Assembly: GCA_965279515.1 (NCBI GenBank)
Contig: CBDIID010000003.1
Coordinates: forward strand, 2,080,001 to 2,144,000
Source: Turneriella sp.
GTDB lineage: Bacteria > Spirochaetota > Leptospiria > Turneriellales > Turneriellaceae
Length of the DNA: 64,000 nucleotides
Reading direction: 5' to 3'
Shown here: positions 19,201 to 25,200 of the stretch, one piece after another
How positions within the stretch are numbered: position 1 is the stretch's first letter
Layout of the letters: every line of letters begins with the position of its first letter
Made by a program: the position numbers

Positions 19201-22200
19201 GTGCAGGCCCCTGCAGGGTTTCGGTGACATCTTCGCCGCGCTCAGCAATACCCGCCACCGTGAAAGCGATACGGCGCGCAGTGGCAAAAATTTTTACTTC
19301 TTTATAAGATAACGCTGTTGATTTGAGAAGCTGCGGCAACCGCTTTTCCCAATCGGCAAAGAGGTTTTTCTGGTACGCTGCGGGTATCTCTTCAGTGGCG
19401 AGTTCAAAAAGAAGGGTATCTTCCACCTAAGCAAAACGGCCTTTCCAGACGACGCGTAAAGTCGAAACATGCCGCATGCCAGATACAGCCAACGTTGCCG
19501 GTAAATCAGAAGGCGCGAAGTACAGGGTGCGCATCGCCGCCGGCAAAAACGAAGTCATCGCCGACGAACCCGTCGAAAAGGGCGGTGGCGATACCGGCAT
19601 GTCACCCTACCAGTTGCTGCTGTCGTCTCTTGCCGCCTGCACCGCCATCACGGTGCGGATGTACGCTGAGCGCAAGGGCTGGGATACCGGAGAAATCGCT
19701 GTCGACGTGGCCTTTGAAACGGAAAAGGGCGACACCAAAATTACCAGAAAACTGACCTTCGGCAAAACCCTCGGCGACGCTGAACACGAACGGCTGATCG
19801 CTGTCGCCAATGCCTGCCCGGTTCATAAAATTCTGACCGGTAAAATCGCGGTTTCCACGAGTTAAAATTCCCGCGTCCGATCCCAGGTTTTCAAACGTAA
19901 TTTATAGGTTGCAGCCCATGTTTATTCCGATAAACCTGCACCAGTTTGGGAAACCCAAATAATATCACAGGAGACACACTAATGAAGAAATTCCAATTTC
20001 TCTCTCGATTGGCCATCGCAGCGGTTTTCGTTGCCGGCGCATCCGCTTTTGCCGACGCCAAAGCAGATGCTAAAGCAGAACGCCGCGCGGCAGCCATCGC
20101 CGAAGTAAAACAGCTTTTAGCTGATTTGACCGGCGAAACCAACAAGCTGAACGATGCACTCGTTGCGGCACAAAAAGGCAAAGAAGTGGTTCAGGCACTC
20201 GACGCATGGGCAAACGCTCTCGACGCTTTCAAAAAAAAGGCGAAAGCCCTGGAATCCAAAAAAGGCTTTAAATTCCTGAAGAAGAAAGAACCACCAGAAG
20301 AAATCAAACCCGACCTCGAAGCATTCATGACATCCGTACAAACAATGTCAGGCAACCTGCAGACAAAAGTGGAACTGTTCAAAGAAAATCCAAAGTTCCA
20401 GAAGCGCATGCAGCAAGTTCTCGCAAAGCTGAAAGATCTCTAAAACAACTTGCGGGTCGCGGGCCAAAAACCCGCGCGCCGCAAAACTATTTTTCCCGAT
20501 TTAGTATTAATTCCGTTCTCCTTTCCCGCACATTTTAGTTTACACACTCTCTCCCGCTCATGTGCTGTTAGGCATGTCAGACGCTGATCAGTACGTTCTT
20601 GCCATCGATTTGGGTACCTCTGGCCCCAAAGTCGCGATTGTCAGCGAGAGCGGCAAGGTCCTGCACTGCGAAGTCGAAGCAACTGAACTCATTCTGCTTG
20701 ATGGCGGCGGCGCCGAGCAAGACCCCGATGACTGGTGGCAAAAGATCTGCGCCGCGTCAAAAAGACTCATCGCCAAAAATCTCGTTCCACTCGATCGCAT
20801 CACTTCTGTCGCCGTTACTTCGCAGTGGTCGGGTACCGTTGCCGTCGATAAATCCGGCAAACATCTCTATAATTCGATCATTTGGATGGATTCCCGCGGC
20901 GCAAAACATGTCGCGCAGGTCATGGACGGCCTCGTCAAATTCCAGGGCTATGACGTCGTCAAGCTCGCGCAGTGGATTCTGCTCACCGCGGGCATGCCTG
21001 GCCTCTCGGGCAAAGATTCGCTCGCCCATGTGCTCTTCATCAAAAATGAAATGCCCGATCTCTACGCGAAGACCTACAAATTTCTCGAACCGAAAGATTA
21101 CCTGAACCTGCGTCTCAGCGGCAAATTTGCTGCTGCTCAGGATTCGATCGCCCTCCACTGGGTTACCGACAACCGCGATCTCAGCAAGGTCCACTACCAT
21201 CCCGGGCTGATACAGACGACCGGCCTCGATGTGAAAAAACTCCCCGATCTCTACAGTTCGACCGATGTGCTGGGAAAAATCTTACCCGATGTCGCCCGTG
21301 AGCTCGGCATCTCTGAGAGCACGATGGTGGTTATGGGTACGCCGGATGTCCAGTCTGCGGCGCTGGGTTCGGGTGCTGTTGAAGATTATGCCGCGCACCT
21401 GTACATCGGTACATCCTCATGGCTCACCTGCCACGTGCCGTTCAAGAAGACATCAGCCGAATACAACATGGCAACGATTCCCTCGGCCGTACCGGGCAGA
21501 TACCTCGTCGGCAATGAACACGAAACCGCGGGGTATTGCCTCACCTACCTGCGCGATAAAATCTTTTATCCCAAAGATGCCATCACACCCGAAGGCGCCC
21601 CGAAAGATGCTTACCAGAAATTCAACGATCTCGCCGCAACGATCGCTCCGGGCAGCGACAAACTGATTTTTACGCCGTGGCTCATCGGCGAACGCACACC
21701 GGTAGAAGACCACACGATACGCGGCGGCTTCTTCAATATGTCGCTCTCAACGACGCGCGCACACATGGTGCGTGCGGTCTTTGAAGGCGTGGCCTACAAC
21801 TCGCGCTGGTTACTTGACGCCGTCGAAGATTTTATCGGCCGCAAGATCGAATATATCAACATGATCGGCGGCGGCGCGCGCTCAGACCTCTGGTGCCAGA
21901 TCCACGCCGACATTCTCAACCGCGAAATACGCCAGGTTGCCGACGCCGTCGAAGCAAATGTGCGCGGTGTCGCATTACTTGCAGGGGTCTCGCAAGGGCG
22001 CTTTAAATTCAAAGACCTTTCGAGCCGCGTGGCAATCGCAAAAACGTATAAACCGATCGCCGCAAACCGCAAGATTTACGACGAGCTTTATACCGAATTT
22101 AAGAATGTCTACACCGCTCACAAGAAAATACATGAGAGAATGAATAAAACACATTAGGAACACCATGGATCCACAACTCATTGCCGAATACCAAAAGAAA

Positions 22201-25200
22201 TTCCCCGAGGTTTTTGCCTTCGTAGAAGGTATCCTCGAACGCTTTCCCGAGCTCGACCGCTTCATTAAATCACAAGGCATTGTGCGCGACCAGATCGATG
22301 CCCAGGCCAAAGAAGTGCTCGAGACGATCGCAAAAGACATGAAACCTTACCGCGACCAGTACGAGGTCCATGCCCGCTTGCCTAAAGAAGGTGTCGCGCG
22401 GCCTGAAGTCCTGAAAGAGCTCAAAGAGATGCGCGATCTAGAGCGTAAAAAATGGAAAGAAGGCTACGTATCGGGCGCTGTCTACCACGGCGACGATGAG
22501 CATATCGAGTATATGAATAACGCCTACACGATACATTCGCAGTCGAATCCCCTGCACTCCGATCTCTGGCCCAGCGCCAGCAAGTTCGAAGCGGAGATCA
22601 TTTCGATGACCGCCGGCATGCTCAGTGAAGGTGCTCCCGAAAGCGTGCGCGCAGGTATCTGCGGTTCGGTATCTTCTGGCGGTACCGAGAGCATCCTTTT
22701 GGCGATGAAAACCTACCGCGATATGGCTTTTGAGGAGCGCGGTGTGCGCAATCCGGAAATGGTGTTGCCGACAACTGCACACGTGGCATTCCACAAAGCG
22801 GCACAATATTTTAAGATCAAGATTCGCTACGTAAACTTTGACAGCAATTTCCGGGCGAACCTCGACGAAGTCAGAAAAGCGATCAATAGTAATACTGTCG
22901 TCGTCGTTGGCTCAGCACCCGCTTTCCCCCATGGCATTGTCGACCCCATCGAAGAGATGTCCAATCTCGCGCTCTCGAAAAAAATTCCGTTCCACACCGA
23001 CGCCTGCCTCGGCGGCTATATTCTGCCTTGGGCAAAAAAACTCGGCTATGATGTGCCTAAATTCGATTTCTCGCTGCCCGGTGTGACATCGATTTCGGTG
23101 GACACACACAAGTACGGTTACGCAGCGAAAGGCACTTCGGTGATTCTCTACCGCAACGCGAAAATCCGCCACCACCAGTTCTTTACCTCAACTAACTGGC
23201 CGGGGGGGATGTACTTCTCACCCACATTCGCCGGTTCACGCCCGGGCGGCCTTTCGGCCGCATGCTGGGCGGCGCTGGTTTCGATCGGTGAAAAGGGTTA
23301 TCTCGACGCTGCGAAAAAAATCATGACAGCCGCCGATTACGTCAAAGCCGAAATCAAAAAAATTCCCGAACTGAAACTCCTCGGCAACCCGCTCTATGTC
23401 ATCGCCTTTGCGTCAGACACCATAGACATCTACAAGGTCATGGAACAGATGACGCATAAGGGTTATTCACTCAACGGTCTGCATCGCCCTGCCTGTGTGC
23501 ATATTGCACTCACACTGCGCCATGCAGAACCCGGTGTAGCAGAACGTTTCATCGAAGACCTCAAGGCTGCCGTAGCTTATGTGAAAGCAAACCCTTCCGA
23601 AAAGGGCAGCTCGGCACCGATCTACGGCATGGCTGCATCACTGCCGGTGCGCAGCGTCGTCGGCGATTTACTGAAAACTTATATGGACGCTTATTATAAA
23701 GTGTAAGTGTCCCCACCCCCTGCCCCTCCCCGCATGCGGGGAGGGGAGCATGGGGGCCTCCCCCGTTTACGGGGGAGGTTGGGAGGGGGACACTGAAGCC
23801 GCATCAGCCCTTAAAACGCCCGTTTTGGAAAAAACGCCTCGCGACTTCTTGAATTCCACACCGTCGCCCTCGCCGAGCAGCAGCATATAGTCGCTGCGGC
23901 CTGAGATCGCAATCGAGTCTTTGATCATTTCCATTTCGCGGCCGCCGCGGCGGTAGAAGGTGCTGTGATGTATGGGTATCATGTAACGTGCGCCGCAGTC
24001 GCGGTAGATCTGCAGAGCTCCATAAGGATTCACATGCACGGCATTGCCAATACCCCCTGAAGTAAAACCTCCTGCTGGTCCTACGGGAATTAACGCAACG
24101 TCGATTTTATAATCGCGCTTGAGATTACGGAAATATTCTTCATGGTAACCGGTGTCGCCGGCAAAGAATACCGTGATGCCTTTGTATTCAATGATATAGC
24201 CGGTATAGGGTTCGCCATCCCACAGATTATCGACCAGCATGCGCCCGCCAAAATGCCGCACCGGTACAGAGGTGATTTTCAGACCATTTTCTTCGTGCGA
24301 ATAGCCCGGGCTTGCGGGATGCTCATGACGGGCCACGGAGTGCGGTGTATAATTAAAACCGCTCGGTGGCGCGAACAAGTGCCCCGAGCCGCGCAGCACA
24401 CGCAGCGAAGGCGCGTCGAGATGATCGAAATGGTTGTGCGAGATGACAATCGCATCGACGGGTTTGACCGAGGCGACATCGATGCCAGGCTCGCTGAGAC
24501 GTTTGACAACTGTGCCGGTACGGTCTGAAAAATTCGGGTCGGTGATAATCCACTTATCGTAGAGGCGCATCAGCACCGTCGCATGCCCCACCCAGTAAAA
24601 CTCAATCTTCTCAGGCGCTGAGACCAGCTGCGGTGCGGGTTTACCGGTTTTGACAGTGCCCGAAAAATTGCCGCAGGCGGCCAGAAACGTCAAAAACAGA
24701 GGAGGCCAGCAAAGGTTGCGCATATTGTCTAGACGCAAATATAACAAAAATATTGTATCGGGAACTTATTCGATGCCGATCCGCTGTTCACCGCCATAGC
24801 GGTAAAAGCCTTCGGTCTCTTCCTGGGCAATAGTCTCGGCTTCGGCGCCGAAATATTTCTTCCTTAATGCATCCAGCGCTGCCGCGTCACCGGCAACCTT
24901 CGACCGTTCGGTAAGGTAGGTTTTGCCCTGTGCCCAACGCGACTCGCGGTCGCGGTCGAGTGTCTCCCAGCGTTCGAGCGTCACAGCATCCATGCCCATT
25001 TCGGTGCGCACGGTCCGAAGCGCATGCCGCTGCTGTGTGGGAGAGAGGGCCTTGAGGTCGGCCTGAACCGATTGCAAGAGTGAATTCGTGATTTCCTGCT
25101 GGTGGCGTTCGAGGTAGGCCCTGGCTTCGGCGCCAAAAGTTTCGTTGAGGGTATTTTTGAAATAGCTCAGCTTGGCGTTGATATCCTTCCCCTTCGCATC

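Follow-up and report, generated by a model that had tools for sequence, protein, structure and literature searches.

A candidate FGGY-family sphingoid-base kinase paired with a sphingosine-1-phosphate lyase in Turneriella

In the spirochaete Turneriella sp., a gene for an FGGY-family kinase directly precedes a gene for a sphingosine-1-phosphate (S1P) lyase, and the two probably form a module that phosphorylates sphingoid long-chain bases and then cleaves them, the role of the kinase being read from its gene context. The pair lies in a window (the whole stretch of DNA analysed) of 64 000 nucleotides. In the first step, the substrate would be sphinganine, sphingosine or phytosphingosine, each a D-erythro 2-amino-1,3-diol whose glycerol-like head the kinase would bind and to whose C1 it would transfer the gamma-phosphate of ATP; the basic amphipathic insertion of the kinase probably attaches to the membrane or shields the lipid tail. 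The pyridoxal phosphate (PLP)-dependent lyase would then cleave the sphingoid-base 1-phosphate between C2 and C3 into phosphoethanolamine and a fatty aldehyde, the reaction known for its homologue, and the aldehyde would be oxidised and passed to fatty-acid metabolism. The most likely source of the bases is foreign lipid that the ceramidases of the genome have opened, and the module may serve both scavenging and the removal of toxic free bases.

The gene pair and its conservation

The kinase gene (20574..22157, + strand; 527 aa; Pfam FGGY_N and FGGY_C) is followed by the lyase gene (22165..23706, + strand; 513 aa), which encodes a PLP enzyme of the StSPL type with no transmembrane segment. The adjacency described in the initial annotation was recovered, with both ORFs on the + strand; the '8 bp' given as their spacing conveys the closeness of the genes, but the gap from kinase stop to lyase start is 7 nt, 8 being the coordinate difference. 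The kinase could alternatively start at an in-frame GTG at 20562, and a scan for promoters and terminators stayed at chance level.

That the pair is kept across phyla, as had been claimed, holds for 55 of 69 testable loci, a conservation far beyond chance. Among 80 loci fetched around relatives of the kinase (52-96% identity), 11 of which have less than 1.5 kb downstream, the lyase lies within 400 nt of the kinase in 54 and at 1.9 kb in one, and is missing in 14. Within the order, the pair is indeed widespread, although the count now stands at 19 of 34 genomes including the present one, rather than 16 of 33. In the family of G001, the gene order is reversed yet the pair is kept for all eight close lyases; in the Myxococcota sample, all ten lyases of at least 56% identity lie within 1.7 kb of a kinase; and the pair persists down to 34-42% identity. 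StSPL of Symbiobacterium thermophilum (Q67PY4; PDB 3MAD, 3MAF and 3MAU), which serves as the structural model for human S1P lyase, has the same kinase neighbour, labelled xylulokinase (Q67PY5), with the gene order reversed relative to the present pair. At a fetched locus (L094), the lyase is identical to 3MAD over 461 of 461 residues and a 51%-identical kinase follows after 5 nt. MFS and TRAP transporter genes sometimes adjoin the kinase. Among the 71 Myxococcota genomes that have a lyase-like gene, the kinase is missing from 54, and many lyases therefore work without it. Genes that would handle the product, glutamine-synthetase-like and AOR, adjoin kinase-less lyases at L123 and L124, and at L300 and L303 the lyase is fused to a product-handling aldehyde:ferredoxin oxidoreductase.

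Identity of the two enzymes

With its two domains FGGY_N and FGGY_C, its fold and its catalytic Asp residues, the kinase is a member of the FGGY family. Its AlphaFold model (pLDDT 97) has the FGGY fold and superposes on glycerol kinase 2DPN with a Z-score of 44 and an rmsd of 2.2 A over 481 residues, while every full row among the lyase-, aminotransferase- and dehydrogenase-linked kinases keeps D12, T15 and D258. The 'new fold class' of the initial annotation is thus new for the proposed reaction only, the modelled fold being an ordinary FGGY one. The protein scores under every NCBIfam cut-off, and the best model, XylB (TIGR01312), reaches 285.5 bits against a cut-off of 380.25. The xylulokinase label was rejected on that score, on the substrate positions (Met-His and Asp-Asn of XylB are W85-S86 and D258-V259 here) and on the missing xylose-isomerase context, the neighbours being the lyase and unrelated genes. 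Glycerol kinase was rejected as well: at three of the five positions of the GlpK signature, Arg-Glu-Tyr-Asp-Phe (PMC3245297), the kinase has Trp, Ser and Trp, with W85-S86 in place of Arg-Glu and W283 in place of Phe, and a separate GlpK-like gene is found on contig C1. Finally, the model for DAGK-type sphingosine kinases such as SPHK and dhSphK1 (PF00781) gives no match on the kinase.

The kinase shares the two-domain fold and catalytic Asp residues of XylB, GlpK, FucK, RhaB, AraB, GntK and LsrK, but differs in forming a separate clade with an insertion of its own (residues about 118-138; 20925..20987, + strand), which in the model consists of a beta-hairpin and a basic amphipathic helix. The insertion carries conserved Y126, K130, L131 and W134, the last kept in 79 of 80 rows of lyase-linked kinases, and adds 8-13 residues relative to reference FGGY kinases, the span from R108 to H152 being 45 aa in this kinase and 32-37 aa in six reference kinases. 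It is common to lyase-, aminotransferase- and dehydrogenase-linked kinases and missing in eight rows linked to RuBisCO-like proteins. The most hydrophobic run of 19 residues in the protein begins at residue 128; the hydrophobic moment does not set the insertion helix apart, since helices 56-66 and 410-420 are equally amphipathic. The insertion may contact the membrane or the lipid tail.

For the lyase, the top PDB match is 3MAD (E 3e-182), ahead of human 4Q6R (E 2e-129); because the closest solved lyase is bacterial, 'eukaryote-like' was an overstatement. Counted from residue 47, 262 of 458 residues (57%) are identical to StSPL, and all 13 active-site residues in Table 3 of PMC6148460 are retained. 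In StSPL numbering, these comprise the PLP lysine, the Asp, the His/Cys sandwich and the phosphate cup (G168, T169, H310, S353, C276, H201, K311 and D274; 8/8), as well as the substrate-phosphate pocket (Y105, H129, A103, N126 and K317; 5/5). By pairwise mapping of the sequences, the PLP-binding lysine (StSPL K311) is K316, with its codon at 23110..23112 on the + strand. The accessible text of PMC6148460 states that S1P lyase requires a phosphorylated substrate, that eukaryotic S1P lyases take chains as short as C7, and that a lipid tail is necessary for binding. StSPL is termed a confirmed S1P lyase in PMC5234717, and the accessible parts of both papers give no source for its substrate.

Other operons of the kinase clade

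The same kinase clade occurs in a second type of operon, alongside a class III aminotransferase and an aldolase of probable FucA type, the two often being fused. This cluster adjoins a neutral ceramidase or endoglycoceramidase gene in three lineages, once together with SCP2 and FadL. In that operon (L204, L278, L279 and L280), the order is aldolase, aminotransferase, SCP2, kinase, TetR, neutral ceramidase (E 5e-123 to PDB 2ZWS), an unnamed gene and FadL; it is the strongest of the ceramidase operons, and its kinase is distant (31-33% identity) and confined to a single lineage. The unnamed gene matches only unnamed Atlas clusters, with a partial lead to a lipase N-domain, and a glycolipid-binding gene is likewise present in operons of the clade. 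At L191, the kinase (45% identical) stands immediately before an endoglycoceramidase homologue (E 1e-111 to 6JYZ) and falls among the lyase-linked kinases on the tree. Lyase- and aminotransferase-linked kinases are interleaved there (AU p 7e-68 and 2e-4), which suggests that both kinds phosphorylate the same substrate, a sphingoid base with a 2-amino-1,3-diol head, at C1; a sister group adjoins RuBisCO-like proteins. Of 11 aldolases from the second type of operon that were aligned, 10 keep the Gly-Asn loop, the catalytic Glu and the three Zn His of FucA; identities are low and close (FucA 23-34%, AraD 22-28%, RhaD 16-20%), and scores fall under the NCBIfam cut-offs. An analogy to the fumonisin aminotransferase FumI was dropped, because the class III aminotransferase matches it only distantly (6HBS, E 2e-21).

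Tentatively, and with the chances somewhat short of even, this one FGGY clade could represent a sphingoid-base kinase widespread among bacteria, a hub whose downstream branches can replace one another. In branch A, that of the present window, the lyase cut at C2-C3 would give phosphoethanolamine and a C16 aldehyde. In branch B, the class III aminotransferase would strip the C2 amine from phytosphingosine 1-phosphate, after which the FucA-type aldolase would cut C3-C4 to yield DHAP and a C15 aldehyde, the lipid backbone being handled like a ketose phosphate; to our knowledge, this has no eukaryotic counterpart. In branch C, deamination may instead fall to a saccharopine-dehydrogenase-like enzyme. 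The FucK-FucA pair of L-fucose catabolism is also an FGGY kinase with a class II aldolase that yields DHAP and an aldehyde, whereas the second operon type has an aminotransferase in place of the sugar isomerase, with lipid hydrolases and carriers adjoining.

Origin of the substrate and competing explanations

The neutral and alkaline ceramidases listed in the initial annotation are present, as two neutral and two alkaline-type genes. However, these genes are scattered, EutB was not found in the genome, and four genomes of the order with the pair (G034, G038, G025 and G026) have no neutral ceramidase, which leaves the complete eukaryote-like catabolic route proposed there only partly supported; use as a 'carbon source' was overstated. 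Kinase and neutral ceramidase occur together in 13 of 13 genomes of the genus. Among Myxococcota, the kinase is present in all six neutral-ceramidase genomes and in 25 of 151 overall (p 7e-5 without the centre genome, kin not being independent), and 19 of those 25 have no ceramidase at E 1e-60. Replication of the ceramidase profile in Actinomycetota failed, with the kinase in none of six ceramidase genomes, a weak test given a chance expectation of 0.34. Of 401 genomes, 6 have an endoglycoceramidase-like gene, and three of these also carry the kinase (p about 0.03 for 2 of 5 when the centre genome is set aside). The kinase subfamily is in none of 16 regions fetched around those ceramidases and endoglycoceramidases. 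No ceramidase or endoglycoceramidase lies near the kinase in the first 80 loci.

The same chemistry might mainly serve the turnover of self-made sphingolipids, a role that is compatible with the proposed module and that we consider unlikely. A gene of the AOS family lies 33 nt upstream of the kinase in G038, with a Sphingobacterium serine palmitoyltransferase (SPT) as its top PDB match; the present genome has a 72% orthologue outside the biotin operon, and matches occur in 21 of 34 genomes of the order. The AOS-GNAT fusion is not the sole synthesis candidate: in addition to BioF and the 815-aa fusion, the genome has this further AOS-family gene. Against such a role, the G038 gene reaches no NCBIfam cut-off (SPT, its best model: score 401, cut-off 640) and has neither the Arg nor the Asn of the SPT motif; moreover, its distribution departs from that of the pair (missing in G044, G025 and G026; present in G020, G030 and G031), and the adjacency was seen once.

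It is quite unlikely that the true substrate of the pair is a soluble 2-amino-1,3-diol, either serinol or a 2-amino-2-deoxy-pentitol or -hexitol, with phosphoethanolamine and a short aldehyde as the products and the activity of the lyase on S1P as incidental. Every assigned FGGY substrate is soluble, the nine functions tabulated in PMC3245297 all concerning sugars or polyols, plus AI-2; the MFS and TRAP genes, the absence of ceramidase at most pair loci and in many carrier genomes, the reported tolerance of eukaryotic lyases for C7 chains and the sister group beside RuBisCO-like proteins also fit. However, that sister group is without the lipid-type insertion, operons of the clade hold ceramidase, endoglycoceramidase, SCP2, FadL and glycolipid-binding genes, and the tail is reportedly necessary for lyase binding. 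We also know of no abundant soluble 2-amino-1,3-diol of this type.

It is very improbable that a DAGK-type enzyme is the real sphingosine kinase and that the FGGY protein acts on another lipid-breakdown product, be it a 2-keto-1,3,4-triol formed by deamination or a sugar or polyol head group that has been set free. In favour of this, DAGK_cat genes number three in the genome, the only bacterial sphingoid kinase to have been characterised is similar to mammalian SphK1 (PMC9045371, accessible part), and the aminotransferase operons fit a FucK-like order of ketose, kinase and aldolase. Against it, a keto substrate cannot explain the pairing because the lyase needs the C2 amine, the tree interleaves the lyase- and aminotransferase-linked kinases, no DAGK homologue lies near any scanned kinase locus, and DAGK_cat genes occur almost everywhere (13 of 14 control genomes).

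The earlier proposal of a sphingoid-base 1-kinase unrelated to DAGK kinases gains independent support, from the StSPL neighbour and the clade operons with ceramidase, endoglycoceramidase, SCP2 and FadL, as a candidate function only.

Comparison with known systems and significance

Eukaryotes degrade long-chain bases with SPHK1/2 or Lcb4/5 (DAGK family), then SGPL1/Dpl1, then fatty aldehyde dehydrogenase. The chemistry proposed here is the same, and the lyase is homologous with the same active-site residues; in contrast, the kinase is of the FGGY type (actin-like fold), the lyase is a soluble protein, kinase and lyase are encoded in one operon, and the kinase clade could also feed an aminotransferase-aldolase branch. 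Bacterial sphingolipid kinases exist, namely dhSphK1 of Porphyromonas gingivalis (PG1348; PMC9045371), which resembles mammalian SphK1, and a Caulobacter enzyme that acts on ceramide (PMC10331486); in the accessible parts of these papers, neither is reported as FGGY or lyase-linked. SphBC of Pseudomonas aeruginosa likewise removes toxic sphingoid bases, with a product that is not identified in the accessible part of PMC11398299, whose main text does not contain the word 'kinase'. Within the literature covered (few subscription papers, no supplements), no report links a bacterial FGGY kinase to an S1P lyase, a ceramidase or a class II aldolase.

If the proposed module is real, its kinase would be a sphingosine kinase with no relation to DAGK-type enzymes and would give the FGGY family its first lipid substrate, proteins labelled xylulokinase in at least seven phyla would be reassigned, and assays could make convenient use of the soluble kinase-lyase pair. 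Through the aminotransferase-aldolase branch, phytosphingosine would be broken down in a new way. A missing route for environmental sphingolipid turnover would be supplied and, should the hub reading also hold, its branches together would form a principal way for lipid-scavenging bacteria to recycle the sphingolipids of plants, fungi, animals and bacteria.

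Gene pair and immediate surroundings

Within the window, a gene for an FGGY-type kinase (20574-22157, + strand, 527 aa) is followed, after an intergenic gap of 7 nt, by a gene for a PLP enzyme, the lyase (22165-23706, + strand, 513 aa). Judging from gene spacing alone, the two are likely co-transcribed, and since the 165-aa gene upstream of the kinase belongs to no Pfam family and the genes downstream of the lyase lie on the opposite strand, the transcription unit probably comprises just these two genes; a promoter scan gave a signal no better than chance. Right behind the lyase stop codon is a GC-rich palindrome (23708-23792) that has 14 BLAST matches in the genome, four of them of at least 60 nt, and looks like a dispersed REP-type repeat. 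Converging on the pair, and retained in close relatives only, are genes for a lipase-like alpha/beta hydrolase (25836-26933, - strand), then a weak lipase-chaperone match (24766-25818, - strand) and then a metallo-beta-lactamase-fold protein (23767-24747, - strand). An ORF of 2026 aa (28419-34499) is lipoprotein-like and repeat-rich in appearance.

The lyase

The best solved relative of the lyase is StSPL, the crystallized sphingosine-1-phosphate (S1P) lyase of Symbiobacterium thermophilum (PDB 3MAD, E 3e-182), which is a better match than the human enzyme (E 2e-129); hence, the description of the lyase as eukaryote-like in the initial annotation reflects the database used there. Counted from residue 47, 262 of 458 positions are identical between the lyase and StSPL, and all 13 of the PLP and substrate-phosphate residues in Table 3 of PMC6148460 are kept, while no transmembrane-like stretch was found in the lyase. 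StSPL is described as a confirmed S1P lyase (PMC5234717), and S1P lyases are stated to require the phosphate (PMC6148460).

Conservation of the kinase-lyase pair

The pair is genuine and widely conserved, as had been proposed at the outset. Among 80 loci retrieved for the nearest relatives of the kinase, which by record title derive from Spirochaetota, Desulfobacterota, Myxococcota, Chloroflexota, Bacteroidota and Bacillota, the lyase adjoins the kinase in 54, lies at 1.9 kb in one and is absent in 14, with the remaining 11 being too short downstream; within the order, the pair is present in 19 of 34 genomes. When the whole genomes behind the 14 lyase-less loci were searched, a lyase-like gene was found elsewhere in 13, in five cases at an identity of at least 55 % (one gene being broken), and of 12 lyase loci retrieved from such genomes, eight adjoin another copy of the kinase. 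In the family of genome G001, a close lyase occurs in eight of 15 genomes, and in all eight the order is reversed, with the kinase after the lyase. Among the eight is a lyase that matches the 3MAD chain at 461 of 461 residues; its neighbour, named xylulokinase in the database, is 51 % identical to the kinase of the window, and a putative glycolipid-binding gene comes next.

Across 401 Actinomycetota genomes, for which three candidates per genome were scored, a kinase match was obtained in 23, and the 20 of 24 matches examined for neighbours adjoin a lyase (nine), a RuBisCO-like gene (eight), a saccharopine-dehydrogenase-like gene (two) or none of these (one); a match in one genome marked as unpublished was left aside. 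In Myxococcota (151 genomes), all ten lyases of at least 56 % identity are within 1.7 kb of a kinase, and there are three distant pairs as well; the kinase is missing from 54 of the 71 genomes with a lyase-like gene. Damaged copies in two genomes, i.e. a kinase with two in-frame stops (L114, from G047) and a broken kinase-lyase copy (L308, from G613), represent either decay or assembly error. At two loci (L295:9004-9819 and L061:7194-7958), an inositol-monophosphatase-family gene separates the kinase from the lyase or immediately precedes the kinase, and may be tied to inositol sphingolipids.

The kinase and its insertion

The kinase carries both FGGY domains, and its model has the FGGY fold (pLDDT 97), superposing on glycerol kinase 2DPN with a Z score of 44.2 and an rmsd of 2.2 A over 481 residues; its score is under all NCBIfam cut-offs, including that for XylB. 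At the specificity positions described in PMC3245297, W85-S86 and W283 replace the Arg-Glu and Phe of glycerol kinase. Position 317 is acidic, as in 78 of 80 lyase-linked sequences (Glu or Asp), and is Leu in Escherichia coli XylB; the acidic residue could bind an amine. The subfamily also has an insertion, such that R108-H152 spans 45 residues versus 32-37 in six reference kinases. In the kinase model, the insertion folds into a hairpin plus an amphipathic helix of basic character, and its W134 is present in 79 of 80 lyase-linked sequences. Because two ordinary helices of the kinase are equally amphipathic, the insertion helix is a hint, rather than proof, of a lipid role.

A second operon type, sometimes with sphingolipid hydrolases

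Kinases of the same subfamily also occur with a class II aldolase and a class III aminotransferase, as in locus L020, a Butyrivibrio fibrisolvens plasmid and a Burkholderia ambifaria plasmid, the last of which additionally has an SDR and an aldehyde dehydrogenase in the operon. Among 36 metagenome loci around close relatives (55-76 %) of the aminotransferase, the kinase is found in 23 and the aldolase in 27, in many cases as a fusion with the aminotransferase, whereas 44 controls taken around distant aminotransferases (420,662 nt vs 359,709 nt) gave no match for a kinase, aldolase, ceramidase or GH5 gene. FucA motifs are kept in ten of 11 aldolases, although identities separate FucA from AraD poorly.

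Three of the 36 loci contain a sphingolipid hydrolase. In L204, the order is aldolase, aminotransferase, SCP2, kinase, TetR, neutral ceramidase (in two pieces), an unknown gene and FadL; in L193, which is without a kinase, the end of a ceramidase adjoins a regulator and the fusion gene; and in L191, the kinase is directly followed by an endoglycoceramidase homologue (E 1e-111 to 6JYZ). The L204-type operon recurs in three Myxococcota genomes, where the ceramidase is intact (E 5e-123 to Pseudomonas 2ZWS); in one of the three, a GH5 gene closest to endoglycoceramidases comes next. With L204 and the three Myxococcota operons counted as a single lineage, the kinase-hydrolase link is based on three lineages, plus the looser case of locus L312; no ceramidase or GH5 match was found near the kinase across the 80 first loci. 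Between ceramidase and FadL there is a conserved 474-aa gene of no Pfam family (L278:13004-14425; also in L204, L279 and L280), for which the Atlas returned unnamed Myxococcota clusters and a lipase-N-domain lead. In seven related loci (L027, L029, L034, L041, L045, L055 and L058), the gene after the lyase encodes a DUF1295 membrane protein, and since an aldolase gene lies upstream of the kinase in three of these, the lyase and aldolase branches can share one cluster.

Kinase phylogeny and exchanged partners

A tree of 41 kinase sequences, a subset thinned from 138 with six more included (quick search under LG+G4), unites the lyase-, aminotransferase- and dehydrogenase-linked kinases in a single clade of 34 (SH-aLRT 98), outside which fall the RuBisCO-like-linked kinases, which are without the insertion. 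The L191 kinase, linked to the endoglycoceramidase, has a lyase-linked kinase as its sister (SH-aLRT 99), that of L020 is nested within lyase-linked Desulfobacterota kinases (SH-aLRT 96), and forcing either the lyase-linked or the aminotransferase-linked kinases into a single clade was rejected (AU p 7e-68 and 2e-4). Given that the two groups are interleaved, with neither forming its own clade, the simplest reading is that all kinases of the clade have the same substrate and product and differ in the enzymes downstream. The lyase requires a phosphate at C1, an amine at C2 and a hydroxyl at C3, and the aminotransferase-aldolase pair the same amine together with a hydroxyl at C4. Both requirements agree with phytosphingosine 1-phosphate, and the 2-keto form of this compound has the ribulose-type configuration cleaved by FucA.

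Other contexts were also seen. A saccharopine-dehydrogenase-like gene precedes the kinase, mostly without a lyase or aldolase nearby, in L119, L121, L258, L260, L281, L284-L287 and L044, and G051, from the same genus as the window, has a paralogue in such a context. Sister-group kinases of 33-35 % identity (L264-L271) always adjoin a RuBisCO-like protein and twice a class III aminotransferase. Distant kinases (34-36 %; L290, L291 and L293) lie downstream of FtsX-type ABC genes and face a convergent run encoding a TPP enzyme, an NTP transferase, a class V aminotransferase, a cytidylyltransferase and a CDP-alcohol transferase (Pfam assignments from L290), which looks like phosphonolipid synthesis.

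Sphingolipid-related genes in the genome and beyond

The initial annotation envisaged a complete catabolic gene set. Two neutral and two alkaline-type ceramidase genes do exist in the genome, two of the four with a fatty-acid-hydroxylase gene and a desaturase gene nearby, but all are far from the pair. The genome also has three DAGK_cat genes. The lyase branch is present here; for the second branch's aminotransferase, the genome gave no orthologue (best match 31 %). The kinase and a neutral ceramidase are both present in all 13 other genomes of the genus, and in four genomes of the order the pair is not accompanied by a neutral ceramidase. In Myxococcota, the kinase occurs in six of six neutral-ceramidase genomes versus 25 of 151 overall (7e-5 when the centre genome is left out); three of the six are the related operon carriers, and kin do not count as independent. 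This pattern was not repeated in Actinomycetota, where none of six ceramidase genomes has the kinase; three of six with an endoglycoceramidase-like gene do.

The substrate might also arise internally, in that the organism may make its own sphingoid bases. An AOS-family gene (G000 C3:3360342-3361655), found in 21 of the order's 34 genomes, has serine palmitoyltransferase as its closest family, though its score is under every cut-off; it is 72 % identical to a gene directly upstream of the pair in G038 (L138:8350-9642).

As to the lyase products, an aldehyde:ferredoxin oxidoreductase (AOR) is fused to an S1P-lyase-like domain in L300:1426-4278, where the kinase is next, and in L303:52-2856. Close lyases without a kinase (58 %; L123 and L124) are flanked by ACT-domain, glutamine-synthetase-like, glutamyl-hydrolase and AOR genes, which suggests a link to gamma-glutamylation of ethanolamine. 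These neighbours fit the proposed chemistry; EutB was searched for in the genome and not found.

Relation to known systems and biological implications

In the eukaryotic textbook route, a kinase likewise acts before the lyase, but the kinases there are of the DAGK family (PMC6148460), whereas that of the window is of the FGGY type. Sphingolipid kinases are known from bacteria, among them dhSphK1, which resembles SphK1 (PMC9045371), and a Caulobacter ceramide kinase (PMC10331486); for Pseudomonas SphBC, PMC11398299 gives the product as unknown. Literature searches, covering main texts rather than supplements, found no paper on an FGGY kinase as a sphingoid-base kinase, and the words 'kinase' and 'operon' do not occur in PMC5234717.

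The core of the original proposal stands as a prediction: the FGGY protein is probably a sphingoid-base kinase that feeds the lyase. More tentatively, at a little short of an even chance, the FGGY clade would be a hub with a second, lyase-free branch. For this organism, the use of sphingolipids as a carbon source, which had been part of the same proposal, is a plausible prediction.
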